64,000 bases of DNA from an uncultured Bacteriovoracaceae bacterium (GTDB lineage: Bacteria > Desulfobacterota > Desulfomonilia > UBA1062). The notes under the pieces were generated by a model. The model had not been told where the DNA came from. It did no database searches and saw only the letters and a list, made by a program, of their open reading frames with translations. Shown one piece after another: positions 20,182 to 52,410 of the stretch. Each line of letters begins with the position of its first letter. Within the stretch, counting starts at the first letter, position 1. The position numbers and the translations under genes are program-made. The stretch spans positions 11,553 through 75,552 of the forward strand of contig CAZNGL010000001.1 of NCBI GenBank assembly GCA_964572405.1. The letters are read 5' to 3'.

Positions 20182-20682
20182 CTATTCCGGGAACAGCAGG
20201 CTGCCTGCCTGGCGGGCGGCATCCAGCCACCCGGCAAAGTCCGATGAACCGGCGGTCTTCTTCACTGCGCCCATGACCCTGCCCGTTTCCACATCCACCC
20301 GTCTCAGGTCGATGCGCATGGCGGAGCCCACCACCATGTACCCCCCGAAGACCATCTCCCTGGCGCCCAGCATCCTGCCCACCCGCAGCCGCGTCTCCTC
20401 GTCTGCAAGCTCAGAGCTGCCGAGCCGGAGTTCCTCCATGACCGCGATGAGCCTGTCCCGCTCCACCACGGTGATGTCCCGTCTCGCCTGGAGGGTCTGG
20501 ATGATCTCGCCGGAAAGGACCTGGCCGAGGTCCGGCCGTGCACCCAGGGCCGGGCTCAGGTCCTCCAGGTCCCACACCGCCACGGCGCGGATCTCCTCAT
20601 GAACGGCCCCGGTGGTGGCACACCCGGTCACGCACAGGAGGCATGCCAGCGCACAGGCCGAAATCGCTAGGCGGCAGCGCAC
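20182..20682 (-). CDS. Lipoprotein with a CsgG-like module
   Basis: Lipobox LLCVTGC. Motif VVERDRLIAVMEELRLGSSELADEETRLRVGRMLGAREMVFGGYMVVGS...RIDLRRVDVETGRVMG parallels the CsgG motifs (ERQGLQNLLNE, GS-IIG, LRVVNVSTGEIL). Confidence 0.55.
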   Translation of the reverse strand: MRCRLAISACALACLLCVTGCATTGAVHEEIRAVAVWDLEDLSPALGARPDLGQVLSGEIIQTLQARRDITVVERDRLIAVMEELRLGSSELADEETRLRVGRMLGAREMVFGGYMVVGSAMRIDLRRVDVETGRVMGAVKKTAGSSDFAGWLDAARQAGSLLFPE

Positions 20683-20686
20683 CTCC

Positions 20687-22636
20687 CTACTCCCTCAGCG
20701 CCTGCTCGTCGAGCTTCTCGATGATCTTGTCGTCCCGGGTGATGGGCCTCGTCTGCTCCACGATACGGCAGTAGGCAAGCCCGGGTTCGGTCTTTGTCAC
20801 CTCGAGAAGGCCCACGTGGGTCGGGGCGGACCTGAGCTTCCGGCTCTTGTACTCCACCTCCCTGCCCTCCTCGATGACCTCGAACTTCGTCCCTGCCACC
20901 ACTCCCTGCTCTGACCCGAGGTTGATCATGACGCGGCCGTCCTTGACCTCCACCACGTAGGCCTTCAGGGGATGCTCCCTGATGACGGAGCCCAGGATCT
21001 GCCGGTTGATCTTGAACAGGTCTGCGCTCTGGGGGCCACCGGGCGCCATCTGCAGGGTGATCACCTTGTCCACTGCGGTGGTCTCGGTGTCGATGAGCCG
21101 CATGTTCAGCAGGGACCCTTCGGCCATGGTGAACAGGGTCCCGGTGCCCAGCACCCTGGCGGCGAGCACCCTGCCGAGCTTCAGGGAGGTCTCGGGGTCG
21201 GCGAGCTCCGAGGAGCCGAGGTTCAGCTCCTCCAGGAGCCTGTCCAGGAGGACGCGGTCCACCACCTTCACCCGGCCGGAGGCCTTGAGCTGTTCTGAGA
21301 GCTGGGAGGTGAGCACGGTGGCCATGCCGTCGCGCTCCGACAGGCCGCCCTGCTCCTGGAAGTCCACGAAGGAGACGACCACGGCCGGAGAAGTCCAGGT
21401 GTCCTCGGGCCTGGGCCGTTTCTGCTGCTCGCGGAACCGCTGAGCCAGCTCCTTCACCAGCTTGTCCACGCGTTCCCTGCGGGCGGTGTCCTGCTGGTAC
21501 CTGAGCCTCTCCATCGCCCTGGCCGCCAGGACCGCGGAGAACTCGTCCTGCCTGTTCACGCCCTGCCCCTGCTGGTACATCTCAAGGGCCTTGTCCCACT
21601 TGCCTTCCTTCTCAAAGGTGACGCCCTTGTTGGCCATGGCCTCCACGTTGTAGGGGTCCAGGGCCACGGCCTGGTCGTAGAGGCTCCGGGATGTCTGGTA
21701 GTCCTTCACGCTGGCATAGAGTCGGCCCAGTTTGTTGTATGCCACGGTCTTCTGGTAGGGCTCTGCCTCGTCCTTCTTCGTCGCGGCCTCGTACTCGTCC
21801 TGGGCCTCCTTCTTCCTGTTCTGGGCGTAGAGGATGTCCGCCTTCACCACGTGGGCATAGGAACGGTTCGGGGCCTTCTTCTGGACCTCTCCGGCAAGGG
21901 CCAGTGCCCTGTCGGCCTTTCCCTGCCGCGCATACACCGCCGCCAGGCCCTCCTTGCCGAGGATCTCGGCCTTGCCGGAGCCCCTGGCAAGCTTCGTGAA
22001 GGTCTTCTCCGCATCACTCACCTTGCCTGCCTTCAGGGCCGCGTACCCGCTCACCGCCAGTGCCTGGTCGTTGTCCGGGCTCTTCCTGGCCACCTCATTG
22101 CCGATGGCCATGGCGAGCGTAGTATCCTTCTGCTGGAGCTTGCGCTCGGCAAGGCGTACCAGCATGACGTTCGTGGTCTTGCCGCCGCCCTGGAACACGT
22201 CCATGACCTTGAGGTTCGGCCCGACGATATAGACCGCAGGGAGGATGGTCCCGGCGCTGTACAGCTCGCTCACCGACCCGGTGTCGAGGAGTATGGGGAA
22301 GGTGGGCTTGGCCGTGGATGCAAAGGCGCTGGCATACTCCCTGGGCGAACGGGTGATGCCCCACACGGAGAGGTTCTCACCCTTGTATTTCTTGGCGATC
22401 TGGTCCAGGCCCAGCAGCCCCTCCTGGGACGGCCGGGATGCCGCGTCGAAAAAGTAGAGCACCAGCATGGGGCTGGCCTTCATGGCGGCCAGATCGTGCG
22501 TCTTTCCCGAGAGGTCTTTCAGCGAAAAGGCAGGCGCTGCCTGTCCCGCTTTCAGGGCATGGACCGGCGGTGCTCCCACCGCGGCCATCGCCAGGGCCAG
22601 CACCAGGCATGGGGCAATGCGTTTGATATAGTTCAT
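20687..22636 (-). CDS. Secreted tri-domain protein: redoxin/thioredoxin-like fold (no CxxC), TPR repeats, C-terminal CsgG-like module
   Basis: Signal peptide MNYIKRIAPCLVLALAMAAVGAPPVHA and an SD before ATG 22636. The AhpC/TSA-like block LKDLSGKTHDLAAMKASPMLVLYFFDAASRPSQ lacks the catalytic Cys. The TPR-like middle contains YNKLGRLYASVKDYQTSRSLYDQAVALDPYN. The C-terminus VVDRVLLDRLLEELNLGSSELADPETSLKLGRVLAARVLGTGTL is CsgG-like. Confidence 0.6.
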   Translation of the reverse strand: MNYIKRIAPCLVLALAMAAVGAPPVHALKAGQAAPAFSLKDLSGKTHDLAAMKASPMLVLYFFDAASRPSQEGLLGLDQIAKKYKGENLSVWGITRSPREYASAFASTAKPTFPILLDTGSVSELYSAGTILPAVYIVGPNLKVMDVFQGGGKTTNVMLVRLAERKLQQKDTTLAMAIGNEVARKSPDNDQALAVSGYAALKAGKVSDAEKTFTKLARGSGKAEILGKEGLAAVYARQGKADRALALAGEVQKKAPNRSYAHVVKADILYAQNRKKEAQDEYEAATKKDEAEPYQKTVAYNKLGRLYASVKDYQTSRSLYDQAVALDPYNVEAMANKGVTFEKEGKWDKALEMYQQGQGVNRQDEFSAVLAARAMERLRYQQDTARRERVDKLVKELAQRFREQQKRPRPEDTWTSPAVVVSFVDFQEQGGLSERDGMATVLTSQLSEQLKASGRVKVVDRVLLDRLLEELNLGSSELADPETSLKLGRVLAARVLGTGTLFTMAEGSLLNMRLIDTETTAVDKVITLQMAPGGPQSADLFKINRQILGSVIREHPLKAYVVEVKDGRVMINLGSEQGVVAGTKFEVIEEGREVEYKSRKLRSAPTHVGLLEVTKTEPGLAYCRIVEQTRPITRDDKIIEKLDEQALRE

Positions 22637-22724
22637 GGTTTTCCTCCCTCCTTGATTTCCCGTCTCTAGTATTAAGGAATATCCCGCCGATGGCAAGATG
22701 CTCTTCCCTCTCAAACCATTTCCC

Positions 22725-24572: not shown

Positions 24573-25739
24573 TCATCGGGCAGTGAAGCGGACAGAGGCC
24601 GGGCCCGTCACATGCCCGCGTGCAGACACCCCTCGAACCGTGATGGTCAGGGACTGTCCCAGGTCTTTCTTCCTGCAGCTGAATCCATCGCCCTTGAGCA
24701 CCCCCCAGGACCCCGTGCCTGTGCGCATCTCATAGTGGTCGAAATTCAGGATATTGTTCCGGAGCGTGAAGTCATACGCCTTGGGCTGCTCCGTCATTCC
24801 TATCACGATCTGATTGACCGGGGCATACACGAGCTTTGCATCGTGGACTGTCCTGATGGACAGGTTGTCCTTGTAGGTCTTCCACGCGGGATCGTTCTCT
24901 TCACTCTCCGTGGCCCTTGCCAGGTGGAAGAGAGAGCCCTTCTGGTGGGCGAGATACGGCTCGTTCCCTGCGTGGAAATAATTAGACTGGAAGGCAATGA
25001 CCAGGCGGTGGAAGAGCTCGCCGCCTATCACATCGATCCGCTCGGGCCGTTCCGTATCCCTCCTGGGGGTGATCCGCCACCGGGCAGGCTCCTTCCCCGC
25101 AACGAGCTCCTCCTGAACCTCTCTGGCATTCATCGGAGTGCCCTCATCATCAACCCAGCAGATGTTCAGGTCCACATCCTGGACCACCCATTTCTGCAGA
25201 TGTTCGCTCCACACCTCCGTGAACGTGTGGGACGACAAGGGCTTGCCCTGAGAGGACGAGTAGACGTGTACGAGCCGGACCGGGACATCGTACGAGAGCA
25301 GCAGCCCGGCATATGCCACGCTGAAGGGGCCGCAGGTGGCCGAATAGTCCCTGTCGCCCCTGATCTTCTCCAGCATGAGAGGCGGATAGAACTTCACCTT
25401 GAATGCCCCGGAACCATGGCGGGAGGTCTCCCTCATCCACAGACGCAAGGCATGAAACCATTCCACATCGTTGCCGTACCTATCCGCAGGGGGTGGGTTC
25501 AGCTCCCGGATGCGCCGGACCCCGTCTCCGTCGTCCACCATCCACCTATCCAGCGCCTGGTAGGTATAGTCCGCGATGACACCGTCCGAGATCCGGACAT
25601 CGTACTGCACTGCCGTGCCGGCGTCTCCCTGCGTTCGGCACCCCCCGCACCAGGAAAGCCACAGCATCATGACAAGAAACCAGACCGTTTGAAATCTCAT
25701 AAAAATACTCCCCCGCTGCATGGATCCTGTGTTGCGCAC
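24573..25739 (-). CDS. Transglutaminase-like cysteine protease superfamily lipoprotein
   Basis: Hydrophobic N-terminus FLVMMLWLSWCGGC. Candidate Cys-His-Asp core: ATCGPFSVAYAGLL, SHTFTEVW, WVVQDVD. Confidence 0.5.
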   Translation of the reverse strand: MRNTGSMQRGSIFMRFQTVWFLVMMLWLSWCGGCRTQGDAGTAVQYDVRISDGVIADYTYQALDRWMVDDGDGVRRIRELNPPPADRYGNDVEWFHALRLWMRETSRHGSGAFKVKFYPPLMLEKIRGDRDYSATCGPFSVAYAGLLLSYDVPVRLVHVYSSSQGKPLSSHTFTEVWSEHLQKWVVQDVDLNICWVDDEGTPMNAREVQEELVAGKEPARWRITPRRDTERPERIDVIGGELFHRLVIAFQSNYFHAGNEPYLAHQKGSLFHLARATESEENDPAWKTYKDNLSIRTVHDAKLVYAPVNQIVIGMTEQPKAYDFTLRNNILNFDHYEMRTGTGSWGVLKGDGFSCRKKDLGQSLTITVRGVSARGHVTGPASVRFTAR

Positions 25740-25780: not shown

Positions 25781-26941
25781 TCAGTCCTCGACCGGTATCA
25801 GCTCCACCGTGAGGGGTTCCCCGCCTTCCTTTTCCACCTGCACCCGGGCCTCCCACTCGTAGTGCCCGGGCATGCTCAGGCGCACCTCGTGGCCCCCCAC
25901 GGGCAGGTCCAGCGTCGTGGGGGCCGTGCCCTTGAGGCTGCCGTCCACGTAGACCTGCGCGCCCGCGGGATCGCTGCTGACCTGCAGGCTGCCCATGTCC
26001 ACCGGCGGCTCCTTTTTTCCCGTGAGCATGAAAAGAGCCACCACGGCAATGACGCAGATGACAGCCAGGGCGGCCAGGATCATGACCAGGGGCCCCTTCT
26101 CTTTCCCGGCCCCGGCCCCTTTCACCCCTTCGCCTGTCCTGAGGAAGGCCCGCAGGGCCTCGGACAGCTCGTGGCCGGTCCTGAAACGCTTCTCCGGGTT
26201 CTTCTCCAGGCACCTGAGGATCACGCCGGACAGTCCCTCGGGCACCTCGGGGTTCAGCGCCTCGGGCCGTGCCGGGGTCTCGCTGGTGATGGCGTGGAAG
26301 ATGGCAGCCAGGTTCTCTCCCTTGAAGGGGCGGGACCCGGTGGCCAGCTCGTAGAGGATCACGCCCAGGGAGTAGAGGTCGGAGCGGCCGTCCACCTTCT
26401 TCCCCATGACCTGCTCGGGGGACATGTAGTTGGGCGTGCCCAGGATCTCCCCCGCCTGGGTCTGGTGGCTCGCCTCGGGGTCCTCCACGTGGGCGATGCC
26501 GAAGTCCGTGAGCTTCACCACCCCCGTGGGCGCCACCATGATGTTCTGCGGCTTGATGTCGCGGTGCACGATGCCCCGGGTGTGGGCGTAGTCGAGGCTG
26601 TCCGCCACCTGGATGCCGATGTCAGCGATCTGCTCCATGGTGAGCGCCCTGTCCCGGGCATAGGCGTTGAGCGCCTCTCCCTCGAGGAACTCCATGGCGA
26701 TGTACACCGTGGACTGGTCCTGGCCCACGTCGTACACAGTGACGATGTTCTGGTGCGACATGCGGCCGATGGCGCGCGCCTCCTTGAGGAAGCGCTGCAC
26801 GAAGTCCTCGCTGCTCACCCGGTCGGGCCTCAGCACCTTGAGCGCGATGGTCCTGCCGATCTGGGGGTCCTGGGCCTGGTAGACCACGCCCATGGAGCCC
26901 TTGCCCAGTTCCTTGACGATCTCGTAGCGGCCGTAGTTCAT
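25781..26941 (-). CDS. ppkA: Ser/Thr protein kinase (Hanks-type, PpkA-like) with TM segment and C-terminal PEGA domain
   Basis: GKGSMGVVYQA...ALKVL (lysine), HRDIKPQN catalytic loop, DFG, GTPNYMSPE. TM segment LVMILAALAVICVIAVVALFML. PEGA-like motif VYVDGSLKGTAPTTLDLPVGGHEVRLSMPGH. Confidence 0.85.
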   Translation of the reverse strand: MNYGRYEIVKELGKGSMGVVYQAQDPQIGRTIALKVLRPDRVSSEDFVQRFLKEARAIGRMSHQNIVTVYDVGQDQSTVYIAMEFLEGEALNAYARDRALTMEQIADIGIQVADSLDYAHTRGIVHRDIKPQNIMVAPTGVVKLTDFGIAHVEDPEASHQTQAGEILGTPNYMSPEQVMGKKVDGRSDLYSLGVILYELATGSRPFKGENLAAIFHAITSETPARPEALNPEVPEGLSGVILRCLEKNPEKRFRTGHELSEALRAFLRTGEGVKGAGAGKEKGPLVMILAALAVICVIAVVALFMLTGKKEPPVDMGSLQVSSDPAGAQVYVDGSLKGTAPTTLDLPVGGHEVRLSMPGHYEWEARVQVEKEGGEPLTVELIPVED

Positions 26942-26944: not shown

Positions 26945-27916
26945 CTATCGTTCCTTTACGAAGGCGATGACGGTCTGGAGCGGCACCAGCAGGCCCGAGC
27001 GGTGGTCGGACTTCATCCTACCCTGCACCACGCCCACGAGGTCCCCCTGCTCGTCGAACACCGGGCTCCCGCTGCTCCCGGGCTCCACCTCCATGCGCAC
27101 CTGGATGAGCGGCTGCCCCTCCACGAGCCGCGGCGGTCCGCTCACCACGCCGGATATCACGGTCCCCGCGTAACCCCTGGGGCACCCGATGGTGAACACC
27201 CTGATCCCCGATCCGGGCGCGGGATCGTGGTTGTTCAGGCTCACCGCGTCTTCGAAGGCCCTGGAGCAGTCGATGAGCGCCAGGTCCTTCTTGAAGTCGA
27301 TCTTCACGATGGCGCCCCCCACACTCCTGCCCGCAGGTGGGATGATGGTGATCTCCGTGGGGTCTTTCAGCATGTGCGCGGTGCACAGGATCAGTCCCGA
27401 GGTGTCCACCACGAAGCCGGAGAGCTGGATGGGCCGGCCCTTCACCACGGCCCGGATGCACACCGACGAGCCCTTGCGGCGCTGCACCTGGGCCGGCACT
27501 TCCCGGGGCGGGAACCCCCGGGCGGAGAAGGTGCCGTCCTGGTAGTCCCCGAGGAAGCTCCACAGGGCATCGGCCCTGCCCTTGAGGGTATCGCCGGACT
27601 TCACCACCGTGGCCAGCGGGGAATTGTATTTCAGCGTGATCTCCCACGGCGCGTTCTGCTTGATTGCCTTGAGCACCACCTTGTCCGCCGGGTTCTCGGC
27701 TGTGACCGAGTAGCCTGCCTTGACCAGCCAGTCCGTTATCACCTGCTCGGCCTCGTACCGGGGGATGTCGAAGACCCTCTCCCGGTCGTCATCGGCGGCA
27801 GAGACGAGCTGCGCTCCCAGCAGGATGAGGAACAGCGCCGGTACCAGAAGCCGCACGGCCAGTGTCCTGATTCCTGACGTGCGGCCGCTCGGGGATTGCC
27901 GGTTGCCCGTTGTCAT
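26945..27916 (-). CDS. Secreted trypsin-like serine protease (S1/HtrA-like fold, no PDZ)
   Basis: Signal peptide. Catalytic triad context CTAHML (His), DLALID (Asp), GSSGSPVFD (Ser). Confidence 0.7.
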   Translation of the reverse strand: MTTGNRQSPSGRTSGIRTLAVRLLVPALFLILLGAQLVSAADDDRERVFDIPRYEAEQVITDWLVKAGYSVTAENPADKVVLKAIKQNAPWEITLKYNSPLATVVKSGDTLKGRADALWSFLGDYQDGTFSARGFPPREVPAQVQRRKGSSVCIRAVVKGRPIQLSGFVVDTSGLILCTAHMLKDPTEITIIPPAGRSVGGAIVKIDFKKDLALIDCSRAFEDAVSLNNHDPAPGSGIRVFTIGCPRGYAGTVISGVVSGPPRLVEGQPLIQVRMEVEPGSSGSPVFDEQGDLVGVVQGRMKSDHRSGLLVPLQTVIAFVKER

Positions 27917-28632
27917 GCGATCCTCGCCAGTACCACTGTAACGTTGTCCTTTCCCCCGGCCGTCTTGGCGTCATCGATGAGCCGGCCCGCCATGTCCTTG
28001 AGTGCGAGGCCTTGCGCCATGCATCGGAGGATCCTGTTGTCATCGATCATATCGGACAGACCGTCCGAACACAAAAGGAAGATGTCCCCCGGCTGGCACC
28101 TGCCCCTGAGGATGTCGAGCTCCACGTGGTCCTTAGACCCGACGGCGCGGAGGATCACATGGCGCATGGCATGGGTGCGGGCCTCCTGTGCGCTGATGAT
28201 CCCCCTGTTCACCTGGTCCTGTACCAGGGAGTGGTCCACGGTGAGCTGCTTGAGCTCGCCTGTGCGGAGCCGATAGGTGCGGCTGTCGCCCACGTGGCCG
28301 ATGACCACCTCGTCTCCCCGGACCGCGAGTATTTCGGCGGTGCACCCCATTCCCGCATGGTCGGGATGCGCTGCCACATGCTGGAGCATCCGGGTGTTCG
28401 CCAGGGTGAAGGAGCGCTTCACCTTCTCCTCCAGGCCGGCCGCATCATCCTGATCGGTGAAGACCTCCACGCAGGTGTCCACGAAGATGCCGCTCGCGAT
28501 CTCTCCCGCAGCAGCGCCTCCCATGCCGTCGGCCACGGCGCAGAAGCCCAGGTCGGGCCGCGTCGCAAAGGCGTCCTCGTTGTTCGTGCGTTTCAACCCC
28601 ACATCACTCGCGCCGTAGTACTCCACCTTCAT
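27913..28632 (-). CDS. pppA: PP2C-family Ser/Thr phosphatase (PppA/Stp-like)
   Basis: SDVGLKRTNNEDAF, VADGMGGAAAGEIAS, LLCSDGLSDM and DNVTVVLARI motifs. Confidence 0.85.
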   Translation of the reverse strand: MKVEYYGASDVGLKRTNNEDAFATRPDLGFCAVADGMGGAAAGEIASGIFVDTCVEVFTDQDDAAGLEEKVKRSFTLANTRMLQHVAAHPDHAGMGCTAEILAVRGDEVVIGHVGDSRTYRLRTGELKQLTVDHSLVQDQVNRGIISAQEARTHAMRHVILRAVGSKDHVELDILRGRCQPGDIFLLCSDGLSDMIDDNRILRCMAQGLALKDMAGRLIDDAKTAGGKDNVTVVLARIA

Positions 28633-28744: not shown

Positions 28745-30232
28745 TCAGATGGGGTCGAAATCGAAGCCGAACATCCGGGGGTTCTCGCAGATCACCGCTG
28801 CGGAGAAGATGTAGTACACATAGTCATAGGTCTCCTTCGGGATCCTGGCCTTCTTCATGAGCGACCAGAAGTTCCGCTCCCTGGGATTCTCGGGCATGCT
28901 CCGGAGGATCTCCCTGATGTTGTTCTCGCCCCAGTTGTACGAGGCCATGACCAGGAGCCCGGATGCCTGGGCCTCGGTGTTGTTGATGTCCCTGAGGTAC
29001 CGGGCAGCGGCCCTGGTCGCCTTGGCGGCATGAAACCGTTCGTCGAAGGGGTCGAACACCGGATCTTCGTACCTCGGGCCGATCTTCAGCCCGTAGTGCT
29101 CCGCGGTCTCGGGGATGAACTGCCACATGCCCTTGGCATAGCCGTACCTGGTGGCCCTGCCCACCGCATTCGGCAGAAACTCGCTCTCCCTCAGCGCCAG
29201 GAAGAGGAACTGCCTGGGCAGGTTGTTCTCTTCAAGGGCCTTTTCGATCATGGCGATGTACCCGTAGGTCTGCGCCCTTTCGACGGCGGTCTGCAGTCTT
29301 CCAGTGGACTTCCACATGGCGATGTAGCGCATCACCTCGTTCACGAACCCCTCCGGCACGTTCACGTCGCACTCGCCGAAGGTGCGGGCCATCCGGAAGA
29401 TGACCTGCTTCTCCAGGGGCGCCTTCTTGTACACCCCGATCTCGGAGACGAAGTTGTCGTACTGCCTGGACAGCTCGCCCAGCTGCCTCCGCTTTTCGAG
29501 CAGGTCCTCGACCTGCGCGCTGTCGGCGTTCAGCAGGACGATGTCCTCGAGCTGCCCGATCTGGATCTCCAGGGCCTTCATGGCGTAGAAGATCTTCTCC
29601 GCCGTCCCCCGCATGGCCTCGAGCTTGGCATTCTGGCGCGCGATGACCTGCTTCTGATGGTAGATGACCGCGCTCGTGATCCCTGCGACGAGAACTGCCG
29701 CGCCGAGCACCGCGCCGATGACATACAGGTACTTCTTCGATTTCTTCCTGTGCGCCCGTTCGAAGGCCCGCCGGAACATGAGGGTCTGCTCGCCCGCCTC
29801 CCCGGCGTCCTTCTTCTCGAAGTAGTGCCTGATGATCTGGGTCTCGGAGGCGAACCCGGGGGGTGCTTCCGGTGCTTCCTCCACCATGGGCGGAGCCGGC
29901 CGCTCGATGGTGAGCTCCAGCAGCGGCCCGCCTTGTCCGAGCTCGATCCGGGCGCTGTCCGGCAGCACCACCTCGGTGACCCGCTCGCCGTTCACGAAGG
30001 TGCCGTTGGTGCTCCCCAGGTCCCTGAGGAGCCACTGCCCTCCGTCAAGGACCACCTGGAGGTGGGTGCGGCTGATGCAGTCGTCCTCGATCCTCAGGTC
30101 GCAGCTGCTTCCCCGGCCCACCAGGAAGGTCGTCTCGAAGCGCTTCTCGGCCTCGGCGGTTTTTCCCTTCTTCACCTCCACCCGCACGGGGCAGGGGGTT
30201 GTCACGGGCGAACCTCTGTCTTCGTCCACCAT
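28745..30232 (-). CDS. FHA domain - TM segment - lytic transglycosylase (SLT domain) fusion protein
   Basis: N-terminal FHA (TFLVGRGSSCDLRIEDDCISRTHLQV...GSTNGTFVNGERV). TM (YLYVIGAVLGAAVLVAGITSAVIY). C-terminal SLT motifs (ESEFLPNAVGRATRYGYAKGMWQFIPETA, LLVMASYNWGENN). The start was set at an internal ATG (MVDEDRG); the upstream part of the track ORF is an artefact. Confidence 0.75.
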   Translation of the reverse strand: MVDEDRGSPVTTPCPVRVEVKKGKTAEAEKRFETTFLVGRGSSCDLRIEDDCISRTHLQVVLDGGQWLLRDLGSTNGTFVNGERVTEVVLPDSARIELGQGGPLLELTIERPAPPMVEEAPEAPPGFASETQIIRHYFEKKDAGEAGEQTLMFRRAFERAHRKKSKKYLYVIGAVLGAAVLVAGITSAVIYHQKQVIARQNAKLEAMRGTAEKIFYAMKALEIQIGQLEDIVLLNADSAQVEDLLEKRRQLGELSRQYDNFVSEIGVYKKAPLEKQVIFRMARTFGECDVNVPEGFVNEVMRYIAMWKSTGRLQTAVERAQTYGYIAMIEKALEENNLPRQFLFLALRESEFLPNAVGRATRYGYAKGMWQFIPETAEHYGLKIGPRYEDPVFDPFDERFHAAKATRAAARYLRDINNTEAQASGLLVMASYNWGENNIREILRSMPENPRERNFWSLMKKARIPKETYDYVYYIFSAAVICENPRMFGFDFDPI

Positions 30233-30261: not shown

Positions 30262-31098
30262 CTACCGCCTGCGCGGGCTGCCGGGGCTGCCCGCCTGGGC
30301 GGCCTCCCTGCGGAGCCTCTCCCGCGTGCGTGCCGGCGAGGCCGATGTTGCGGAAGGGGCAGGTGGCCTCACCCGAGGGGTCAGGGTCGGAGGCGGAGCG
30401 GGACGCACCGGACCGCTGGTGCGCGGTATGGCCGGGGCTCCCCGTGCACGGGCCGGGTGACCCGGCCGTGCCGCGACGGACACCGGCTGCAGGGTCAGCG
30501 GCGGGTCCCGGCGGGCGGATACCGGCCTCCGGCCGACAGCTTCCCGCGCTAACAACTCGCGTTCCATATGTTGTACTACGCGCGTCTCCCGGACATCCCG
30601 CGGCTGGCCTGACGTGCCCGACACCGCCCGGTGCGTGGCGATCCAGCCCCTCCGGTTGGAGATGATCATCAGCTGGGAGACGTGTCCCGTGGCCCTGGCC
30701 CGGTCCATGGCGGTCCGGGAGTCCATGCCGGCACTGCGGTCCACCACGTAGGTCATGGCGGCGATCGCATCGGTCCGCAGGGCGTCGAGGTCGGAGATCA
30801 CCTGACGGCACCAGGCCGCCACCGGGTCCGTGGTGGCAAAACGGTCCTGGGGGGTACCCGCCGTCAAGGTGGCATCCCCGCGCCTGGACTCAGGGATCAG
30901 CATCCGCCACTCCTCGGGTATGTACCGTTCCCGGATGGTCTGGTAGGACGGCGGAGGGATAACTCCTTCCACCTCGGGGAATTCCCTCAGGAGGAGGGTG
31001 TGCATGACCTCCGGGTCGTCCAGGTTCAGGTGCGAGTTCCGGTACCGCTCCCTGATGATGTAAAGCATGTCCAGGAATTCTTCAGCAGTGACGTACAT
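30262..31098 (-). CDS. Hypothetical protein with Pro/Arg-rich C-terminus; first gene of the minus-strand TPP operon
   Basis: ATG 31096-31098 preceded by GGAGGTGG. The N-terminal ~170 aa is globular-looking; the C-terminal ~100 aa is low-complexity P/R/A-rich. No family recognised. Confidence 0.35.
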   Translation of the reverse strand: MYVTAEEFLDMLYIIRERYRNSHLNLDDPEVMHTLLLREFPEVEGVIPPPSYQTIRERYIPEEWRMLIPESRRGDATLTAGTPQDRFATTDPVAAWCRQVISDLDALRTDAIAAMTYVVDRSAGMDSRTAMDRARATGHVSQLMIISNRRGWIATHRAVSGTSGQPRDVRETRVVQHMERELLAREAVGRRPVSARRDPPLTLQPVSVAARPGHPARARGAPAIPRTSGPVRPAPPPTLTPRVRPPAPSATSASPARTRERLRREAAQAGSPGSPRRR

Positions 31099-31168: not shown

Positions 31169-32149
31169 ATGAAGGAACTGCCGGTCATCCTCGTCCAGCT
31201 TGTGCACATCCAGGGCCCGCTCATGGGCCAGATCCAGGAATTCACCGAGGAGAAGATCACCATCGGCAGGCACCCGTCGTGCAGCGTGCAGTTCCCCACG
31301 GACCTCACCACCATTTCCCGCACCCATGCCGAGCTCGTGCGGGAGGGCAACCGCTACAAGGTAACTGACCGCAGCACCAACGGCACCTTCGTCAACGGCA
31401 AGCGCGTCACCGAGGCCTTCCTCAAGGACGGCGACGTGATCATGTTCACCGAGGGCGGCCCCAAGGTGAGTTTCCTGGCAAAGATCACGGATGCCGTCAT
31501 GAAGGAGCCCGCTCCTGGGCCGGCCGCACCGGAGCCCCCTCATGCCGGGCCTCCTGCGACACCTGCCCCAAAGCCCGGAGCGCCCGCGGAGCAGACTGCT
31601 CCGGCGAGGCCCGCCCGGTCGGAACCGGTCGTCCCTCCTGCCCCTGCGGCTTCCAGACCCGCCCCCCAGCAGCCCGCGGCCCCCGCGCAGGTTCCTCCCA
31701 GGCCCGCCGCCGCTGCCCGGCAGCAGGTCCAGAAGGTGCAGGCCCCGCTCATGGTCCAGTTCGGGCCCATGCTGAAGTCGTACAAGGAGCTGCCCATCGT
31801 CATCGGGTCGAAAGCGGGCGCCGACTTCGTGCTCAGCGACACTGCCATCGCCGACGCGCACGCCCAGATCTTCTTCAGCCAGGACATGTACTGGATCAAG
31901 GACCTCACAGGCAGGAACCTCATCACCATCGGCGGGAAGCCCATCGGCTTCGAGGCACCGCTCAGGGCGCAGGATATCATCTCGCTCGCCCCCGGGGGAC
32001 CGTGCCTGCGGTTCCTGGGCGAAGGAAGGCTCGCCGAATGCGAGCAGGCCCCGGCCGAAGAGGAGCCGAGGCCGTCGAGACCCGCGCAGAGCGAACCTTC
32101 GAAAAAGGCGAAACCTACGAAATCCATCTTCGACATCTTCAAGAAATAA
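31169..32149 (+). CDS. fha: T6SS-associated FHA-domain protein with two FHA domains (Fha/TagH-like)
   Basis: FHA1 ITIGRHPSCSVQFPTDLTTISRTHAELVREGNRYKVTDRSTNGTFVNGKRV. FHA2 IVIGSKAGADFVLSDTAIADAHAQIFFSQDMYWIKDLTGRNLITIGGKPI. A Pro/Ala-rich linker separates them. It lies divergent to the kinase/phosphatase operon. Confidence 0.75.
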   Translation: MKELPVILVQLVHIQGPLMGQIQEFTEEKITIGRHPSCSVQFPTDLTTISRTHAELVREGNRYKVTDRSTNGTFVNGKRVTEAFLKDGDVIMFTEGGPKVSFLAKITDAVMKEPAPGPAAPEPPHAGPPATPAPKPGAPAEQTAPARPARSEPVVPPAPAASRPAPQQPAAPAQVPPRPAAAARQQVQKVQAPLMVQFGPMLKSYKELPIVIGSKAGADFVLSDTAIADAHAQIFFSQDMYWIKDLTGRNLITIGGKPIGFEAPLRAQDIISLAPGGPCLRFLGEGRLAECEQAPAEEEPRPSRPAQSEPSKKAKPTKSIFDIFKK

Positions 32150-32162: not shown

Positions 32163-32570
32163 CTAGCAGTTCATCAGGATCCGCTCGCCGTCTATCTTCA
32201 CGTCGTCGTTGGCCTGGACGTTCACGTTCCCGAGCTCCGCCGTGATGTTCTGGATGCGCGCCCGGGTGGTCAGATCGCCATCAACGCAGATGTGTGCGTC
32301 GCCCCCGCTGGTGAGAGCGATGCCGTCGCGGCCGTGGATGGCCAGGCTCTTCGCATTGATGGCCAGGTCCCCGTCGGTCCTGATCATGAGGCCCGTGCCC
32401 TCCAGGTGCAGCACCGGACCCTGATCTGTGACGGTGATGGTGAGGCTCACCCTGTTGTCCGCACCCGTGATCACGAGGCGGTCCTCCTGAGGGCCCTGGT
32501 CGATGAGGAGGTGTCGGTCTCCCCGGAGATCCACCACCTGGACCGCAGTCGTTGTGATATGGTCTTCCAT
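32163..32570 (-). CDS. Small beta-helix protein resembling the VgrG/gp5 C-terminal needle region (orphan spike-extension or PAAR-like cap candidate)
   Basis: 135 aa, directly downstream of vgrG (14-nt gap). Repetitive G/D/T-rich beta-strand pattern (LTITVTDQGPVLHLEGTGLMIRTDGDLAINAKSLAIHGRDGIALTSGGDAHICVDGDL). Ends ...ILMNC, as VgrG ends ...LIQNNC. Confidence 0.45.
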   Translation of the reverse strand: MEDHITTTAVQVVDLRGDRHLLIDQGPQEDRLVITGADNRVSLTITVTDQGPVLHLEGTGLMIRTDGDLAINAKSLAIHGRDGIALTSGGDAHICVDGDLTTRARIQNITAELGNVNVQANDDVKIDGERILMNC

Positions 32571-32584
32571 GTCCTGTCGCTCCT

Positions 32585-34738
32585 TCAGCAGTTGTTCTGG
32601 ATCAGCGTGCCTCTCAACTGGAGTATGCCGGCCGTTTCGAGGGTTATTCCGCTCGGCGCGATGAGTATGGACGAACCGCCCGCATCCAGGGTTATCGTCC
32701 CGCTCGGCGCCATGGTGATGGTGCCCGCCCCGCAGCTTATCTGGATCGAAGAGGTTCCTGTAATGATGACCTGATCCGCCGATGCGTCCATGACGCCCAG
32801 GGTCTTCAGGTTCAGGTTTGTGTCAGTCCGTATGAACCTGTTCCCGATGGCCTGCTCGTTGAAATCGGTCTCCACAACGGTGTTCTTGCACCCGGTGACC
32901 CTGGTGTTGTCGTCACCGCCGATTTCGCACTGACGCAGTGCGGAGACCGTCAGGCGGTCATCGCCATCGATCTCCACGCCCCTGCCGCCCTGGATGTTCT
33001 GGGCCTCTCCGTCCGTCACGGCCACGTTTCTTCCCTGCTCCACCCGGAGGGTCTCGCCTCCATGGATGGTCCGGGTGCAGCTGCCCGTCACCTCGATGGT
33101 CTCGTTGCCAGACACGTTCAGGCTCCGGTCGCCGCCCACACCCACCGAGTCGTTGGCGCCCACCGTGGCGCTCCGGTTGTTTCCCACCACGATGTTGTGG
33201 TCCTTCTGGGCGTGGATGAACACCTCCTCCTCGCCCTTCTTGTCCTCGAAGCGGATCTCGTTGAATCCGCCCCCGCCTATGCTCGACTCCGATTTGATGG
33301 TGCTCTTGGTCTTCTCGTCGGGCAGGGTGTACGGCGGGGTATGGGTGCCGTTGTACACGCTGCCGATGATGATCGGCCGGTCAGGATCGCCCTCGATGAA
33401 GCTCACGATGACCTCCTGGCCGATCCGCGGGAGCCACACGGCGCCCCACCCCATGCCCGCCCAGATCTGCCCGACCCGGATGAAGCACGTGGTGTTCTCG
33501 TCGTACTGGCCCTCCCGGTCCCAGTGGAACTGCACCTTCACCCGGGCGTGCTCATCGGTGTAGATCTCCTCGCCCTCGGGTCCGGTGACCAGGGCGGTCT
33601 GTACCCCCACGATGACGGGCTTGGGAGTGAGCAGCGGCGGCCTGAACGGGATGCTGTGCGGTATGCACACGAAGGTGTTCGTGTATGATGCCTCGGTGTC
33701 GCCGCCGCTGCCCGAAATGGGCTCGCTGGCGGCGTGGTTCAGCGCGGTGAGCACATAGGGGCGGTCGTTCATGTCGTCGCGGTGGTACTCTGCCAGGGTG
33801 AAACGGAAACCGCTGATGAACGCGCGGCAGTTGCTCGTGCCGGAGAGCACCGTGATCTGGGCCTCCTCGGCCTGCATGCGGAGGTTGGCGTACCGCTCGC
33901 CCTCGGACACGGTGAGGTACTCGCCGGGGTAGTCGTACAGCTCTCGTTCGCCCTGACCCACGGTAATGCTCGTGGGCACCTCCCACCTGAGGTCGGTGAG
34001 CGGCATGAGGAAGTTGAAGTCCTTGATGGTGTACTTGCCGAACCGTATCTCCTCCCCCCACCCGATGTTCTTGATCACGTCCTCGGTCTCGAGCGTGGTC
34101 TCGCCGGTGAGCTGGCAGCGGACCCTGTCCTGGTGGGGGCAGTCCTGGTGGACGTCGGCCGAGTCGGCCAGCACCAGCACGTGACGGCCGTCCTCGTGCT
34201 CGAAGAAGTAGAAGATACCCTCCTGCTCCAGGAGCCGGGAGATGAAGTTGAAGTCGCTCTCGTGGTACTGCACGCAGTACTCCTTGGGCTCGTAGGAACC
34301 TGAGAGCCGGAACTCGTAGTCCGCGAACTCCCTGTCAGCAAAGATCTGCTCTATGATCTGCTGCACGGTCTTTTCCTGGAAGATCCGGGAGTTCACGGTA
34401 CGGGTGAGCAGCCAGAACCAGGGCACCATGGTGGCGGAGTACGTGGCAATGTGCAGGTACTGCTCCTGGTCGGACCCCTCGCCGAGGCGCTCCTGGGAGA
34501 AGCGGCAGATGATGCCGTTGATGTACCTTCGCTCGTCGTCCGCCATGCCGAGGCATATCGTGACGCCCTGGCCGATGATGTCGCGGGGGTTGATGTTCGT
34601 GTCCTCGGATGCCAGCGTCAGCTCGAAGCTGAAGGGCTGGGAGATCCCTTCAGATCCCGTGAACCCGGTGAGCATGAGCACGTTCTCGCCCAGCGGGGTA
34701 GTGATGGAGAGAAGACGGTTTTCCTGTGTCAGTGTCAT
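32585..34738 (-). CDS. vgrG: Type VI secretion spike protein VgrG
   Basis: N-terminus MTLTQENRLLSITTPLGENVLMLTGFTGSEGISQPFSFELTL is canonical VgrG. 717 aa with gp27/gp5-like regions and a C-terminal beta-helix repeat. Confidence 0.9.
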   Translation of the reverse strand: MTLTQENRLLSITTPLGENVLMLTGFTGSEGISQPFSFELTLASEDTNINPRDIIGQGVTICLGMADDERRYINGIICRFSQERLGEGSDQEQYLHIATYSATMVPWFWLLTRTVNSRIFQEKTVQQIIEQIFADREFADYEFRLSGSYEPKEYCVQYHESDFNFISRLLEQEGIFYFFEHEDGRHVLVLADSADVHQDCPHQDRVRCQLTGETTLETEDVIKNIGWGEEIRFGKYTIKDFNFLMPLTDLRWEVPTSITVGQGERELYDYPGEYLTVSEGERYANLRMQAEEAQITVLSGTSNCRAFISGFRFTLAEYHRDDMNDRPYVLTALNHAASEPISGSGGDTEASYTNTFVCIPHSIPFRPPLLTPKPVIVGVQTALVTGPEGEEIYTDEHARVKVQFHWDREGQYDENTTCFIRVGQIWAGMGWGAVWLPRIGQEVIVSFIEGDPDRPIIIGSVYNGTHTPPYTLPDEKTKSTIKSESSIGGGGFNEIRFEDKKGEEEVFIHAQKDHNIVVGNNRSATVGANDSVGVGGDRSLNVSGNETIEVTGSCTRTIHGGETLRVEQGRNVAVTDGEAQNIQGGRGVEIDGDDRLTVSALRQCEIGGDDNTRVTGCKNTVVETDFNEQAIGNRFIRTDTNLNLKTLGVMDASADQVIITGTSSIQISCGAGTITMAPSGTITLDAGGSSILIAPSGITLETAGILQLRGTLIQNNC

Positions 34739-34806
34739 GGCCTGTCTCCTTCTGTACGGTCTATCCTCTTTCGTTCAGCCGCAGCGGTTTCTTCAGGGTC
34801 TTCCGG

Positions 34807-35964
34807 TCACGGCCACTCGGCCCGCAGCGGCATGGCATCGAGCTCGTCCGGCAGGTAGGGGCGCAGCGCCGGCGCCGATCCCCGCCAGAGAATGCTCAGT
34901 CGGTCCTCGTCCGGTTCGATGAGCACGGTGTGCATGACCGGTTCGGTGGGGTTCATCCTTCCCTTCCTGCCGTCCGTCCAGAGCCGGGGAGCCTTGGGTG
35001 GGAGCTTGATGCGGAGTGTCTCCATCTTCGGGTGCATGTTACCGAGCAGGACCTCCTCCCCCCCCCTCAGGTACGGCACGGTCAGCCCCGGCGAGGCGCC
35101 GTTGGTCATGAGAAACGCGCCCCTGGCGTCCGGGGCACGCTCGGCGGTGATCCACTCCGGTGCCAGACCACGCCGGACCTCGGCCGGCACTGCGCTCTGA
35201 GGTTCGAAGTAGGGTACGATCCCCGCGTAGGAAACGCGGGGGAACCAGCCGTAGTCATACCAGTCCGTGGCCTGGGGCAGCGGCATGCGGATCCACTGCT
35301 GGTGGTCGAACACGGCGAGCCGCTCAGGGGTGAGGGGGTCCTGCGGATCCTCGAGGTTCGGAAGCTCCGTGGCCTCAACGGCCTCTTTCTCCATTTCGAT
35401 GAGATACCCCCTGCCGCAGGGGTTGCGCGGGTAGAGGAACGGACTCGCCATGTCCAGGTCGCAGTACCTCTTATCCACGTTCGGGTGCAGTTCCAAGAAA
35501 GGGTTCCCGTACTTCCCCTCTGCCGTTCGGTCTCGTCCCCCGTACGCATGGGTGTACGCGAGCGGCACCTTGTCCACGAACTCGGGATCGGAGAACACGA
35601 TGCCCTTTCCCGGCCTGAGGGTGCAGCGCCTGTTCCCGATGACGAGGATCCGCTTCTCGTTTCTGTGCACGCGCACGCCTGCATCGAAGATGGTCCTGCC
35701 TTTCCCATAGGCATGTCCCTTGATCACGACGTCCGTGGCCGGCTTGAACGGAAAGATATCTATGTCCCGGACCAGGAGGCCCTTTATCTCTGGATGGGGC
35801 TCGGGTGCCGTCACCAGGGGTACCTGGCCGGGCGACGGTTCGCACCGGCCGTCCGGCATGATGCCGTACGTGATCTTGAGGAGGACCGCCAGGATGCTTC
35901 TGCCCTCAGGATCTCTGCCGGAAAACTGCATGAGCGTCTTTGACGGTGTGGTCTGCACTGGCAT
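34807..35964 (-). CDS. DUF2169-family T6SS adaptor protein (paralog 2)
   Basis: Paralog of the 36889..37851 product. Shared motifs AYTHAYGGRD vs LAYAYGGKDD, ELPNLEDPQ vs ELPNIEDPK, and the Pro-rich core. DUF2169 proteins are VgrG-linked adaptors (established for the Agrobacterium Tde2 system). Confidence 0.7.
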   Translation of the reverse strand: MPVQTTPSKTLMQFSGRDPEGRSILAVLLKITYGIMPDGRCEPSPGQVPLVTAPEPHPEIKGLLVRDIDIFPFKPATDVVIKGHAYGKGRTIFDAGVRVHRNEKRILVIGNRRCTLRPGKGIVFSDPEFVDKVPLAYTHAYGGRDRTAEGKYGNPFLELHPNVDKRYCDLDMASPFLYPRNPCGRGYLIEMEKEAVEATELPNLEDPQDPLTPERLAVFDHQQWIRMPLPQATDWYDYGWFPRVSYAGIVPYFEPQSAVPAEVRRGLAPEWITAERAPDARGAFLMTNGASPGLTVPYLRGGEEVLLGNMHPKMETLRIKLPPKAPRLWTDGRKGRMNPTEPVMHTVLIEPDEDRLSILWRGSAPALRPYLPDELDAMPLRAEWP

Positions 35965-35994
35965 GGTTCGTCCCTCCCTCCGGCAGTATCCGGT

Positions 35995-36867
35995 CTATCC
36001 GCCGCCCCCGTGATTCTCGGGGCCCTGTCCGTTCAGGTATTTCTGGGCCGCATCTCCCAAGGCGCCGCCGGGGGTCGACACCCCCAGGGTTCCGGCGTCG
36101 GCGCCCATGGGTCCTCCCCCGAAGAACCCGATGATGGCATTCGCCGCGTTCCCCGTCCGTGCGGGGAGTGCGGTGAAGAAATCCGCAGCGGCCTGATTCC
36201 GTGACCGGGCCAGGTTCCTGGCCGCCTGGTTGATCATGTTCCCCGGCACACCGCCCTGGCTCCTGAGCAAGGCCTTGGCAGCGGCCTTGCTCATGACCCG
36301 GGGTGCGAACCGTCCGAACATGTACCCGAGATACGGTCCCATGGCATTGCCCATCTGGTTGCCCAGGGCATTGAGGATGGACTGCACGCAGAAGTCGATG
36401 GCCATGGCATTGAATCCGAACATGACGTCCGCGAGGGTCATGTTGGTGTACACCGTGGTCAGGGCAAGGACCATGCCGGTGGGTGTGGGGATGGGGATGC
36501 CGCAGTCGAGGTTCGGGTTCAGGTGGCCTGCCAGAGCCGCCGCGATGCGCTCGTTCTGGCTCTCTGTGCTCGTCGGACCGAAATATGACTTCGACGAGCT
36601 GAAGGCGATATCGATGGGCAGGGTTTGGGAAGGCGGACCCATATGCGGGATCATGGGGCCCACGTCGGTGGGCACCTGCATGGTCAGACCGAAGCCCTGC
36701 TGGTTATGGGTGGTGGCCATTTTCGAGGTAAGGCCTGTGCCCGCCATGATGGAAGCAGTCTTGTAAGGCGCCGGAGCAGGAGCCGGAGCCGGCGACCCGG
36801 GCGGCCAGGGGATGTGGAAGTCCACGCCCATGACCGGGTGCCAGTGTTTCAATACCGCGCACAACAT
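35995..36867 (-). CDS. Candidate T6SS effector/spike-associated protein: N-terminal HWHP...DFHIPWPPG segment, poly-(AP) linker, Gly/Ala/Asn/Met-rich glycine-zipper-like C-terminus
   Basis: Sandwiched between two DUF2169 adaptor genes upstream of vgrG. The SD GAGGGAGAAG precedes ATG 36867. The C-terminal GxxxG-like repeats (GNQMGNAMGPYLGYMFG, IIGFFGGGPMGADAG) suggest membrane-active or disordered character. Similarity to PAAR-like DUF4150 N-termini is tentative (from memory). Confidence 0.45.
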   Translation of the reverse strand: MLCAVLKHWHPVMGVDFHIPWPPGSPAPAPAPAPYKTASIMAGTGLTSKMATTHNQQGFGLTMQVPTDVGPMIPHMGPPSQTLPIDIAFSSSKSYFGPTSTESQNERIAAALAGHLNPNLDCGIPIPTPTGMVLALTTVYTNMTLADVMFGFNAMAIDFCVQSILNALGNQMGNAMGPYLGYMFGRFAPRVMSKAAAKALLRSQGGVPGNMINQAARNLARSRNQAAADFFTALPARTGNAANAIIGFFGGGPMGADAGTLGVSTPGGALGDAAQKYLNGQGPENHGGGG

Positions 36868-36888
36868 CTCTTCTCCCTCTCGATGTGT

Positions 36889-46761: not shown

Positions 46762-46861
46762 GGTCTCTCCTTTCGATCTCAGTGAAAACTGAATCCTTTG
46801 ACTCGAACGGGTCAGTCCTCCTCTGACACGCAGGTTCTCCCCTGCCAGGGGCCTGACCCAT

Positions 46862-49701: not shown

Positions 49702-49714
49702 TCCTCGTGGTCCC

Positions 49715-52398: not shown

Positions 52399-52410
52399 AG
52401 GCCTTCCCTC

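Follow-up and report, generated by a model that had tools for sequence, protein, structure and literature searches.

A predicted phosphothreonine-reading, membrane-anchored lytic transglycosylase encoded with a Ser/Thr kinase module and a type VI secretion cluster

To assemble, a type VI secretion system (T6SS) needs a peptidoglycan hydrolase, examples being TagX and MltE, the latter recruited by TssM (PMC13584744, PMC10433429). TagX is an inner-membrane L,D-endopeptidase that is encoded in the T6SS loci of Acinetobacter and Burkholderia and is needed for T6SS biogenesis (PMC13584744). MltE is a housekeeping lytic transglycosylase of enteroaggregative Escherichia coli, which TssM both recruits and stimulates for the assembly of the TssJLM complex (PMC10433429). 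Post-translational control of T6SS assembly is also known, through the threonine phosphorylation pathway of PpkA, PppA and Fha1/TagH and through phosphorylated TssL and Fha in Agrobacterium (PMC10433429, PMC13584744). A signalling domain is present in neither TagX nor MltE. Here we analyse a 64,000-nucleotide stretch (the window) of contig CAZNGL010000001.1 from an uncultured Bacteriovoracaceae bacterium, in which a gene on the minus strand encodes an FHA domain, a single transmembrane helix and an SLT lytic transglycosylase domain in one protein, hereafter FHA-SLT. The new element that this locus suggests is a T6SS-associated peptidoglycan hydrolase fused to a reader of threonine phosphorylation.

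FHA-SLT resembles TagX in its inner-membrane anchor, its periplasmic peptidoglycan-hydrolase domain and the position of its gene in a T6SS locus. However, TagX is a VanY-type enzyme that cuts peptide cross-links and is devoid of an FHA domain, whereas FHA-SLT is a predicted cleaver of glycan strands with a cytoplasmic phosphothreonine (pThr) reader, and the two are not homologous, as FHA-SLT has no match to any peptidase family. With MltE it shares the family-1 SLT fold, the MltE structure 6gi4 being a recognisable structural neighbour (TMt 0.59). On the other hand, MltE is an outer-membrane lipoprotein without a phospho-signalling domain, encoded outside the T6SS locus and recruited by a periplasmic protein contact, whereas FHA-SLT is encoded in the locus, anchored in the inner membrane and fused to FHA. 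The partners of FHA-SLT in the window are a Ser/Thr kinase with a PEGA domain (STK-PEGA), a PP2C phosphatase, a dual-FHA protein (Fha), a Trypsin_2 protease and CsgG-like lipoproteins. From the domains, fold, predicted topology, residue conservation and synteny, all of which were analysed directly, we infer the phospho-partner, the enzymatic activity and the role in T6SS assembly, and we give even chances to the reading that FHA-SLT would be a bitopic inner-membrane accessory factor of the T6SS, recruited by phosphorylation within this module to open the peptidoglycan. The gene and the parts of its product lie as follows:

28745..30232, minus strand: FHA-TM-SLT gene, 495 amino acids plus stop (translated open reading frame with Pfam FHA and SLT).
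29906..30187, minus strand: predicted cytoplasmic FHA domain, residues 16-109 (Pfam core 37-99).
29774..29794, minus strand: juxtamembrane motif G147-E-Q-T150-L-M-F, candidate phospho-acceptor or FHA ligand.
29663..29719, minus strand: single transmembrane helix, residues 172-190.
29438..29662, minus strand: predicted periplasmic helical stalk, residues 191-265, helices in both structural models.
29303..29389, minus strand: family-specific conserved module AR-x-FGEC...P..F..EV..YI..W, residues 282-310.
28748..29275, minus strand: MltD-like SLT lytic transglycosylase domain, residues 320-495, with the catalytic E349-S350 at 29183-29188.

The open reading frame (ORF) starts at the ATG at 30232 and ends with the stop codon at 28745-28747. 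This start is backed by the N-termini of 29 aligned homologues, and the G+C content at third codon positions (GC3) of the ORF is 0.90. A longer version from the GTG at 30811 was dropped, with an in-frame GC3 of only 0.67 and homologue N-termini that begin at M1. The two Pfam matches exceed chance by far: FHA (PF00498) scores 71.3 bits at E 9.2e-20 over residues 37-99 (gathering cut-off 20.7), and SLT (PF01464) scores 61.9 bits at E 5.3e-17 over residues 328-448 (cut-off 21.3); Yop-YscD_cpl also matches (E 1.2e-14). Two AlphaFold2 (AF2) models were obtained, a full one built on 30 family members with a predicted local distance difference test score (pLDDT) of 80, and one of residues 217-495 only (pLDDT 84). 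The FHA part is modelled as a beta-sandwich at residues 16-109 (pLDDT about 85-90), in keeping with the eleven-stranded FHA fold. Foldseek retrieved for it the FHA domains of GarA, FhaA, Rv1747 and OdhI (TM 0.81-0.88), and searches of the PDB by sequence and by structure both rank FhaA and Rv1747 near the top. The FHA part is followed by a disordered linker of low confidence (113-150), a short juxtamembrane helix (149-161) and a continuous helix (167-234) that comprises the transmembrane segment and the periplasmic stalk, with a second stalk helix at 238-265. The transmembrane segment IGAVLGAAVLVAGITSAVI (residues 172-190) is the sole hydrophobic segment of the protein (Kyte-Doolittle 2.33), and a hydropathy scan of the protein found no signal-peptide-like segment at the N-terminus.

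The C-terminal domain is all-helical in the AF2 models, with a fold of the goose-lysozyme type, and MltD is its closest relative by both sequence and fold. The closest PDB sequence match is Pseudomonas aeruginosa MltD (8rhe, phmmer E 2.6e-13), and the best Foldseek matches of residues 217-495 are MltD structures of the same species (8rhf/8rhi, E 7e-06, TMq 0.56-0.58, 24-26% identity); the lower-ranked matches Slt, MltF, MltC, MltE and the phage T7 gp16 transglycosylase are all lytic transglycosylases as well. The ES, GxxQ and YNxG motifs are common to MltD and FHA-SLT, but MltD, a lipoprotein whose C-terminus bears LysM repeats, has neither an FHA domain nor a transmembrane stalk. The module at residues 282-310 is N-terminal to the MltD-aligned region, the sequence alignment with the PDB entry of MltD beginning at residue 320. 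Within it, G286, E287, C288, P293, F296, E299, Y303 and W307 are invariant in the alignment of close relatives (A1), and C288 is kept in 74 of the 82 relatives of the wider alignment described below. Taken together, Pfam, hydropathy, AF2 and Foldseek bear out the FHA, single-helix and SLT architecture that the first-pass annotation of the window had read from the letters and the translated ORFs.

Residue conservation was followed in an alignment of 82 full-length relatives from many phyla. The catalytic Glu349, which the annotation had placed in the ESEF motif and whose conservation it proposed to check, is present in 82/82 relatives, as is Q371. S350 is kept in 77/82, G368, W370, Y432, N433 and W434 in 81/82 each, and G435 in 78/82, and the GxWQ and YNWG motifs are kept along with the catalytic ES. 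The FHA pocket is also well preserved, with G39 in 82/82, R40 in 79/82, S54 in 80/82, H57 in 81/82, N76 in 75/82 and G77 in 79/82 relatives, and all pThr-pocket residues are invariant in A1. Because these pocket residues are conserved among the relatives, the FHA domain is probably a true pThr reader.

ATP-dependent phosphorylation is cytoplasmic and peptidoglycan is periplasmic, and each of the two domains is workable only in its predicted compartment. Six Lys/Arg residues lie on the N-terminal side of the transmembrane helix of the query and three on its C-terminal side. A single hydrophobic segment was found in 74/82 relatives; the 15 residues preceding it hold on average 6.4 Lys plus Arg, those following it 3.1, and the N-terminal side had the higher count in 78/82. 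Because of this excess of positive charge N-terminal of the single helix, the positive-inside rule predicts an N-in/C-out topology with a cytoplasmic FHA and a periplasmic SLT domain, in agreement with the placement of the domains on opposite sides of the membrane in the annotation. A periplasmic C288-C482 disulfide was considered as topology support, both Cys residues being kept in close relatives, and was dropped because 55/82 of the wider family have Gly in place of C482.

The juxtamembrane motif lies at the end of the linker, about 20 residues ahead of the transmembrane helix in the AF2 model. G147 and T150 are each kept in 78/82 relatives, the wider motif being G147-E-[H/Q]-T150-x-M-[I/V/F] with a hydrophobic residue at position +3. 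FHA domains commonly prefer pT-x-x-(I/L/V). The +3 residue of T150 fits this preference, and we treat T150 as a candidate phospho-site, a lead rather than a result. The linker motif S-E-T131-Q-I-I was rejected as a phospho-site: it is near-invariant in close relatives, yet T131 is found in only 49/82 of the wider family. T150 is the better candidate because of its higher conservation.

The type III secretion system (T3SS) offers a parallel for both halves of FHA-SLT. YscD/EscD is a bitopic inner-membrane secretion protein with an N-terminal cytoplasmic FHA fold, and a dedicated lytic transglycosylase of the EtgA type aids wall crossing. In the T3SS these are separate proteins, whereas in FHA-SLT they are one. 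Besides, the YscD FHA fold is without pThr-binding residues, which are kept in FHA-SLT.

The genes around FHA-SLT in the window, from the gene preceding it to the end of the kinase module, and then on the other side, are the following:

30262..31095, minus strand: conserved ORF of 277 amino acids (ORF277), same-strand neighbour of FHA-SLT, 30 nt upstream of it, function unassigned.
27913..28632, minus strand: PP2C phosphatase, PppA-like (Pfam PP2C_2, E 9.6e-17).
26945..27916, minus strand: secreted Trypsin_2/HtrA-like serine protease (Pfam Trypsin_2, E 2.4e-20).
25781..26941, minus strand: PpkA analogue, a bitopic Ser/Thr kinase whose PEGA domain is periplasmic (Pkinase E 3e-58, PEGA E 9e-16).
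24573..25739, minus strand: transglutaminase-core-like protein with an N-terminal hydrophobic segment (Pfam Transglut_core, E 3e-05), 41 nt after the kinase gene.
20687..22714, minus strand: AhpC/TSA-TPR-CsgG-like periplasmic protein (Pfam), module end.
20182..20682, minus strand: CsgG/LpoB-like lipoprotein with a lipobox-type N-terminus.
31169..32149, plus strand: dual-FHA protein (Fha), transcribed away from the ORF277/FHA-SLT operon; Pfam matches two FHA stretches (E 4.5e-31).
32163..61895, minus strand: complete T6SS-i cluster (Pfam).

FHA-SLT, PP2C, Trypsin_2 and the kinase form a tight same-strand array, which supports the phospho-recruitment reading. The 112-nt gap between FHA-SLT and PP2C holds no terminator-like site on the minus strand, and the Trypsin_2 and PP2C genes overlap by 4 nt at start and stop. 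A promoter and terminator scan of 28400-31400 found nothing exceeding shuffled expectation. Pfam recovered what the annotation had described of the surroundings, namely the same-strand array with PP2C and kinase, a dual-FHA gene on the divergent side and the T6SS context. Its placement of FHA-SLT at the operon start needs correction: because ORF277 precedes it by 30 nt on the same strand, FHA-SLT is the second gene of the transcription unit. ORF277 has a coding-type GC3 (0.82), no Pfam match and a Pro/Arg-rich tail; its homologue in locus L003 (E 3.6e-86) is the first gene of the PP2C operon, and L082 has a partial homologue. The transmembrane segment of the STK-PEGA kinase is LVMILAALAVICVIAVVALFML.

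The genomic context of the family was surveyed in 81 loci, in which relatives of the window-derived proteins were sought by tblastn and by two-round hidden Markov models on six-frame ORFs. Context counts rest on the 32 loci flanked on each side by 8 kb or more, and the T6SS-associated genes counted were VgrG, DUF2169, TssA/B/C/E/F/G/K/L/M and Hcp. Within 10 kb, a Hanks kinase was found in 25 of these loci, PP2C in 16, T6SS-associated genes in 17 and at least one of these in 27, and in many cases such a neighbour adjoins FHA-SLT directly. Beyond this count, T6SS genes are also near FHA-SLT in L083-L087. FHA-SLT stands beside T6SS genes in Thermodesulfobacteriota, Geobacter, Nitrospirota, Bacteroidota/Ignavibacteria, Anaeromyxobacter and the Chromatiales, the last represented by Thiorhodococcus drewsii AZ1 and Thiocystis violacea DSM 208. 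The PP2C start lies 4-150 nt past the FHA-SLT stop in loci of Ignavibacteria and Bacteroidota. Two long contigs of closer relatives, L085 and L086, retain the organisation of the window nearly gene for gene, in the order TssF-TssG-ClpV-VgrG-DUF2169...FHA-SLT-(dual-FHA, convergent)-PP2C-Trypsin_2-STK-PEGA-AhpC/TPR/CsgG-CsgG lipoprotein, and L087 carries VgrG, DUF2169, a PAAR-like gene, an OmpA-like gene, STK-PEGA, FHA-SLT, Fha and Hcp. Dual-FHA homologues adjoin FHA-SLT in L002, L003, L008, L083, L086 and L087, and the Trypsin_2 gene is kept with the module in L002-L011, L082, L085 and L086. The association of FHA-SLT with Ser/Thr signalling is very strong, and that with the T6SS is strong and not exclusive. 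The T6SS link drawn in the annotation stands as to its strength, with 17/32 loci, and does not hold as an exclusive one, with 5/32 loci in housekeeping surroundings. By its recurrent position in or beside T6SS loci of unrelated taxa, FHA-SLT qualifies operationally as a T6SS-associated gene (TAG).

The T6SS cluster of the window comprises VgrG, two DUF2169 genes, a DUF7059-MTS methyltransferase, DUF5086, a TssB-TssC-like fusion, ClpV, TssG, TssF, TssE, Hcp, TssC, TssB, TssA, TagJ, a TagF-like gene, TssM, TssL, TssK and TssJ. TssL (59305-59976, minus strand) has 223 amino acids and consists of DotU only, without the C-terminal OmpA-like peptidoglycan-binding extension, and Pfam detected no TagL-like or OmpA-like gene in this cluster.

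As in the Fha1/TagH pathway, an FHA domain, a Hanks-type kinase and a PP2C phosphatase are encoded together at one T6SS locus. However, TagH is a soluble scaffold without an enzymatic domain, the ectodomain of the kinase here is PEGA where PpkA has vWA, and Trypsin_2 and the CsgG-like lipoproteins make up a periplasmic accessory set unlike TagQRST. The set formed by the AhpC-TPR-CsgG-like and CsgG/LpoB-like proteins may be a periplasmic sensing analogue of TagQRST.

Based on this organisation, we propose a theoretical scheme for the action of FHA-SLT. A periplasmic cue would activate the membrane-bound STK-PEGA kinase, which would phosphorylate Thr on itself, on Fha and/or on the juxtamembrane T150 of FHA-SLT. 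The FHA domain would dock onto such a pThr, and the enzyme would be recruited or clustered there. The stalk would bring the SLT domain to the sacculus for local cleavage of glycan strands, which might let the TssJLM complex, with its TssL devoid of a peptidoglycan-binding domain, insert or anchor. PP2C would reset the phosphorylation signal. The direct gating of wall opening by kinase phosphorylation, which the annotation had put forward, is consistent with the synteny and the residue conservation described above.

Several observations weigh against this reading. Five of the 32 fully flanked loci (L001, L039, L056, L068 and L069) lie among housekeeping genes only, and a Pfam check of these five for divergent kinase or T6SS genes was negative, the neighbours being glycosyltransferases, NamZ, PEPCK, SecA and an autotransporter. 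An Ignavibacteria locus (L020) has the complete kinase/phosphatase/protease/lipoprotein module, and a Nitrospira locus (L046) a kinase module, with no recognisable T6SS gene within 10 kb in either. Because these two loci carry the module without T6SS genes, the family may serve the kinase module rather than the T6SS as such. Conversely, in L083 the T6SS genes and Fha are present, and neither a kinase nor a phosphatase was found within 10 kb. T150 could be a simple structural helix cap. The census itself covers 10-kb flanks and the 80 loci most similar to the query, with window-derived profiles that are less sensitive to divergent T6SS types.

These points lead to the rival explanation that survives best, although we consider it rather unlikely, namely that FHA-SLT is the peptidoglycan-remodelling arm of a general STK-PEGA/PP2C/Trypsin_2/CsgG-like envelope module for wall turnover, repair or growth, with which the T6SS is often co-located or which it co-opts. 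The kinase is indeed the commonest neighbour, found in 25/32 loci versus 17/32 for T6SS genes, and the five housekeeping loci would fit as well. The Ignavibacteria locus combines OmpA-like, Trypsin_2, TPR-CsgG-like, CsgG/LpoB-like, FHA-SLT, PP2C-TPR and STK-PEGA genes, and the Nitrospira locus caspase-Sel1, LPP20, DUF4384, FHA-SLT, the kinase and subtilases. There is also a mycobacterial precedent, in which the FHA proteins FhaA and FipA/FhaB act with PknA/PknB in wall synthesis, and the best NCBIfam FHA match of FHA-SLT is FhaB_Rv0019c (FipA/FhaB, E 1.2e-17). As in FHA-SLT, a cytoplasmic FHA domain, membrane-anchored in FipA, links kinases to the wall in these proteins, but they are without a periplasmic enzyme, belong to actinobacterial growth and division and have no secretion-system context. 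Against a general envelope role, T6SS genes are directly adjacent to FHA-SLT in many phyla. VgrG ends 35 nt upstream of FHA-SLT in T. drewsii (L049), DUF2169 or VgrG is immediately upstream in L004, L005, L009, L016, L027, L034 and L086, and in L083 there is a 10-nt overlap of the sheath-like TssB-TssC fusion gene with the FHA-SLT start codon, the dual-FHA gene following. A T6SS cluster may also lie slightly beyond the 10-kb flanks where none was recognised.

The domain composition of TssL could hint at another role, that of a structural anchor, in which the SLT domain would mainly bind and not cut peptidoglycan, tethering the T6SS membrane complex while the FHA domain docks on phosphorylated T6SS components. 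FHA-SLT would then be a TagL-like stand-in for the OmpA-like domain that TssL is missing, in line with the DotU-only TssL, the cluster devoid of a detected OmpA-like protein, and the compensation of ancestral TssL by TagL in other systems (PMC13584744). We hold this to be improbable: the catalytic Glu and the family-1 lytic transglycosylase motifs are preserved throughout the 82 relatives, as expected of an active enzyme, and OmpA-like genes are nearby in some related loci (L020, L026, L087).

Similarly doubtful is a position upstream of the kinase, with FHA-SLT as a signal generator or sensor whose SLT domain releases 1,6-anhydromuropeptides or probes wall damage, the PEGA domain, the protease or the lipoproteins sensing the result and the FHA domain giving feedback. 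The module is rich in periplasmic parts (PEGA, Trypsin_2, CsgG/LpoB-like lipoproteins, AhpC-TPR) and is kept even without adjacent T6SS genes, both of which would suit such a role. On the other hand, muropeptide binding by PEGA domains is unsupported, and an FHA domain reads phosphorylation, which places the protein downstream and not upstream of the kinase.

A peptidoglycan-degrading effector delivered through the neighbouring VgrG/DUF2169 adaptor set is very improbable and was rejected: although FHA-SLT is just downstream of VgrG and DUF2169 adaptor-type genes in many loci and lytic-transglycosylase effectors such as Tse4 are known (PMC10433429), a cytoplasmic N-terminal FHA domain with a conserved pThr pocket and an N-in bitopic topology do not fit, the uniform length and 41-57% identity across phyla are unlike those of fast-evolving effectors, FHA-SLT is followed by a PP2C, Fha or methyltransferase gene and not by a small immunity gene, and Pfam and NCBIfam find no PAAR, Rhs or MIX-type delivery domain.

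The remaining genes of the kinase module are conserved to different degrees. The transglutaminase-core-like gene has no homologue in other loci (81 loci searched), and small secreted and methyltransferase ORFs lie between it and the AhpC-TPR-CsgG-like gene. The latter likewise follows the kinase in L082, L085 and L086. CsgG/LpoB-like homologues were found in 28/81 loci, with a Pfam CsgG match in L085 and L086. In Ignavibacteria and in relatives from Thermodesulfobacteriota/Geobacter, the pair of AhpC/TSA-TPR-CsgG-like and CsgG/LpoB-like genes accompanies STK-PEGA, Trypsin_2 and PP2C. A paralogous pair of genes for proteins of about 650 amino acids (14923-16872 and 18125-20086, both on the plus strand) converges on the kinase module of the window. 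The repeats of these two proteins are of the He_PIG, Big_9 and cadherin-like Ig types, and the N-terminus of the second protein is lipoprotein-like; in L082 a He_PIG protein is encoded at the same position. Around FHA-SLT and the convergent kinase of the Nitrospira locus, the place of T6SS genes is taken by caspase-Sel1, LPP20, DUF4384/FlgT_N and two subtilase genes (L046:5167-9852 and 13987-18331), a distinct proteolytic and periplasmic setting for this protein.

Within the T6SS cluster, the gene at 41758-43263 (minus strand) encodes a fusion of about 500 amino acids of TssB (VipA) and the VipB N-domain of TssC, which is without the VipB_2 C-terminal domain and is additional to the canonical TssB and TssC. 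Relatives were found at L083:8481-10010, L013:11544-13484, L038:7917-9869 and L057:3008-4597 and in L012, L014, L041 and L058, and such fusions recur beside FHA-SLT and the dual-FHA gene in several phyla. The fusion could be a partner of FHA-SLT. Among the top full-text literature matches no paper on natural TssB-TssC fusions was found.

The DUF7059-MTS-DUF7782 methyltransferase gene lies at 39430-40956 (minus strand) within the cluster, and in a closer relative (L085:11506-12999) such a gene follows FHA-SLT with overlapping stop and start. Five ORFs of the cluster, all on the minus strand, have no confident Pfam match (32163-32570, 35995-36867, 37883-39433, 61910-62695 and 62620-63927), and the last four of these have no NCBIfam match. 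The 135-amino-acid protein encoded after VgrG has weak, sub-threshold DUF3540/DUF2345-like matches only. These Pfam-less ORFs may be cargo or adaptor genes.

The phospho-recruitment reading can be extended to the locus as a whole, which we put forward tentatively. The locus may represent an undescribed and widespread variant of T6SS Thr-phosphorylation, made up of STK-PEGA, PP2C, dual-FHA, Trypsin_2, CsgG-like lipoproteins and the TssB-TssC-like fusion, with FHA-SLT as its wall-breaching component. Phosphorylated T150 (pT-x-x-hydrophobic) would be the FHA ligand, and the enzyme would cluster in trans or with Fha, cutting only where and when the kinase fires.

The annotation had regarded the FHA-SLT fusion as an uncommon architecture, which is not the case, since relatives turned up in no fewer than 589 species genomes, of about eight phyla, when one genome per GTDB species was scanned. 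The best 80 relatives of that scan are essentially full length, with 41-86% identity. A profile search of 1.84 billion representatives at 50% identity gave 649 clusters at E<=1e-30, and a word-indexed search gave 4076 clusters at E<=1e-5, with FHA plus SLT at 477-524 amino acids in 118 of the best 120. The relatives of the species scan come from Thermodesulfobacteriota, Geobacter/Desulfuromonadales, Nitrospirota, Ignavibacteria/Bacteroidota and Acidobacteriota, and further from Chromatiales and other Gammaproteobacteria, Calditrichota, KSB1 and Anaeromyxobacter. A sub-group with the order FHA-FHA-TM-SLT (585-656 amino acids) has an N-terminal extension of about 150 amino acids that matches a second FHA domain. 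Its members (L018:9752-11863, L022:2028-3965, L058:9878-11827, P0122, P0123, P0126 and P0128) are hosted by Ectothiorhodospiraceae and other Gammaproteobacteria.

In source annotations the relatives are named 'FHA domain-containing protein' or 'MltD', and no NCBIfam model reaches its cut-off on FHA-SLT. Orthology with MltD was rejected, as NF008050 scores 63.6 bits against a cut-off of 508 and the protein has no LysM match and no lipobox, carrying FHA and an internal transmembrane helix instead. Orthology with TagH was likewise rejected, as TIGR03354 scores 40.2 against 120.25 bits and its match is restricted to the FHA part; the dual-FHA Fha is also below the TagH cut-off (78 against 120). 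A fusion of FHA with a lytic transglycosylase was not found described in the full-text literature (T6SS reviews, comparative genomics and work on the lipocone superfamily), of which coverage was partial, and an earlier description is possible. A 2026 review cataloguing T6SS accessory factors does not cover this family. FHA-SLT belongs to a large, widespread and apparently unstudied family.

How envelope-spanning machines cross the peptidoglycan safely, with cutting limited in space and time, is known in part for the T6SS, with TagX and MltE as examples. FHA-SLT fuses the cutting enzyme to a predicted reader of the kinase signal that licenses T6SS assembly. The phyla that host it dominate sediments, soils and bioreactors, and their T6SS regulation is essentially unstudied. 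If the reading proposed here is true, FHA-SLT would be the first lytic transglycosylase wired to, and directly controlled by, Ser/Thr phosphorylation.

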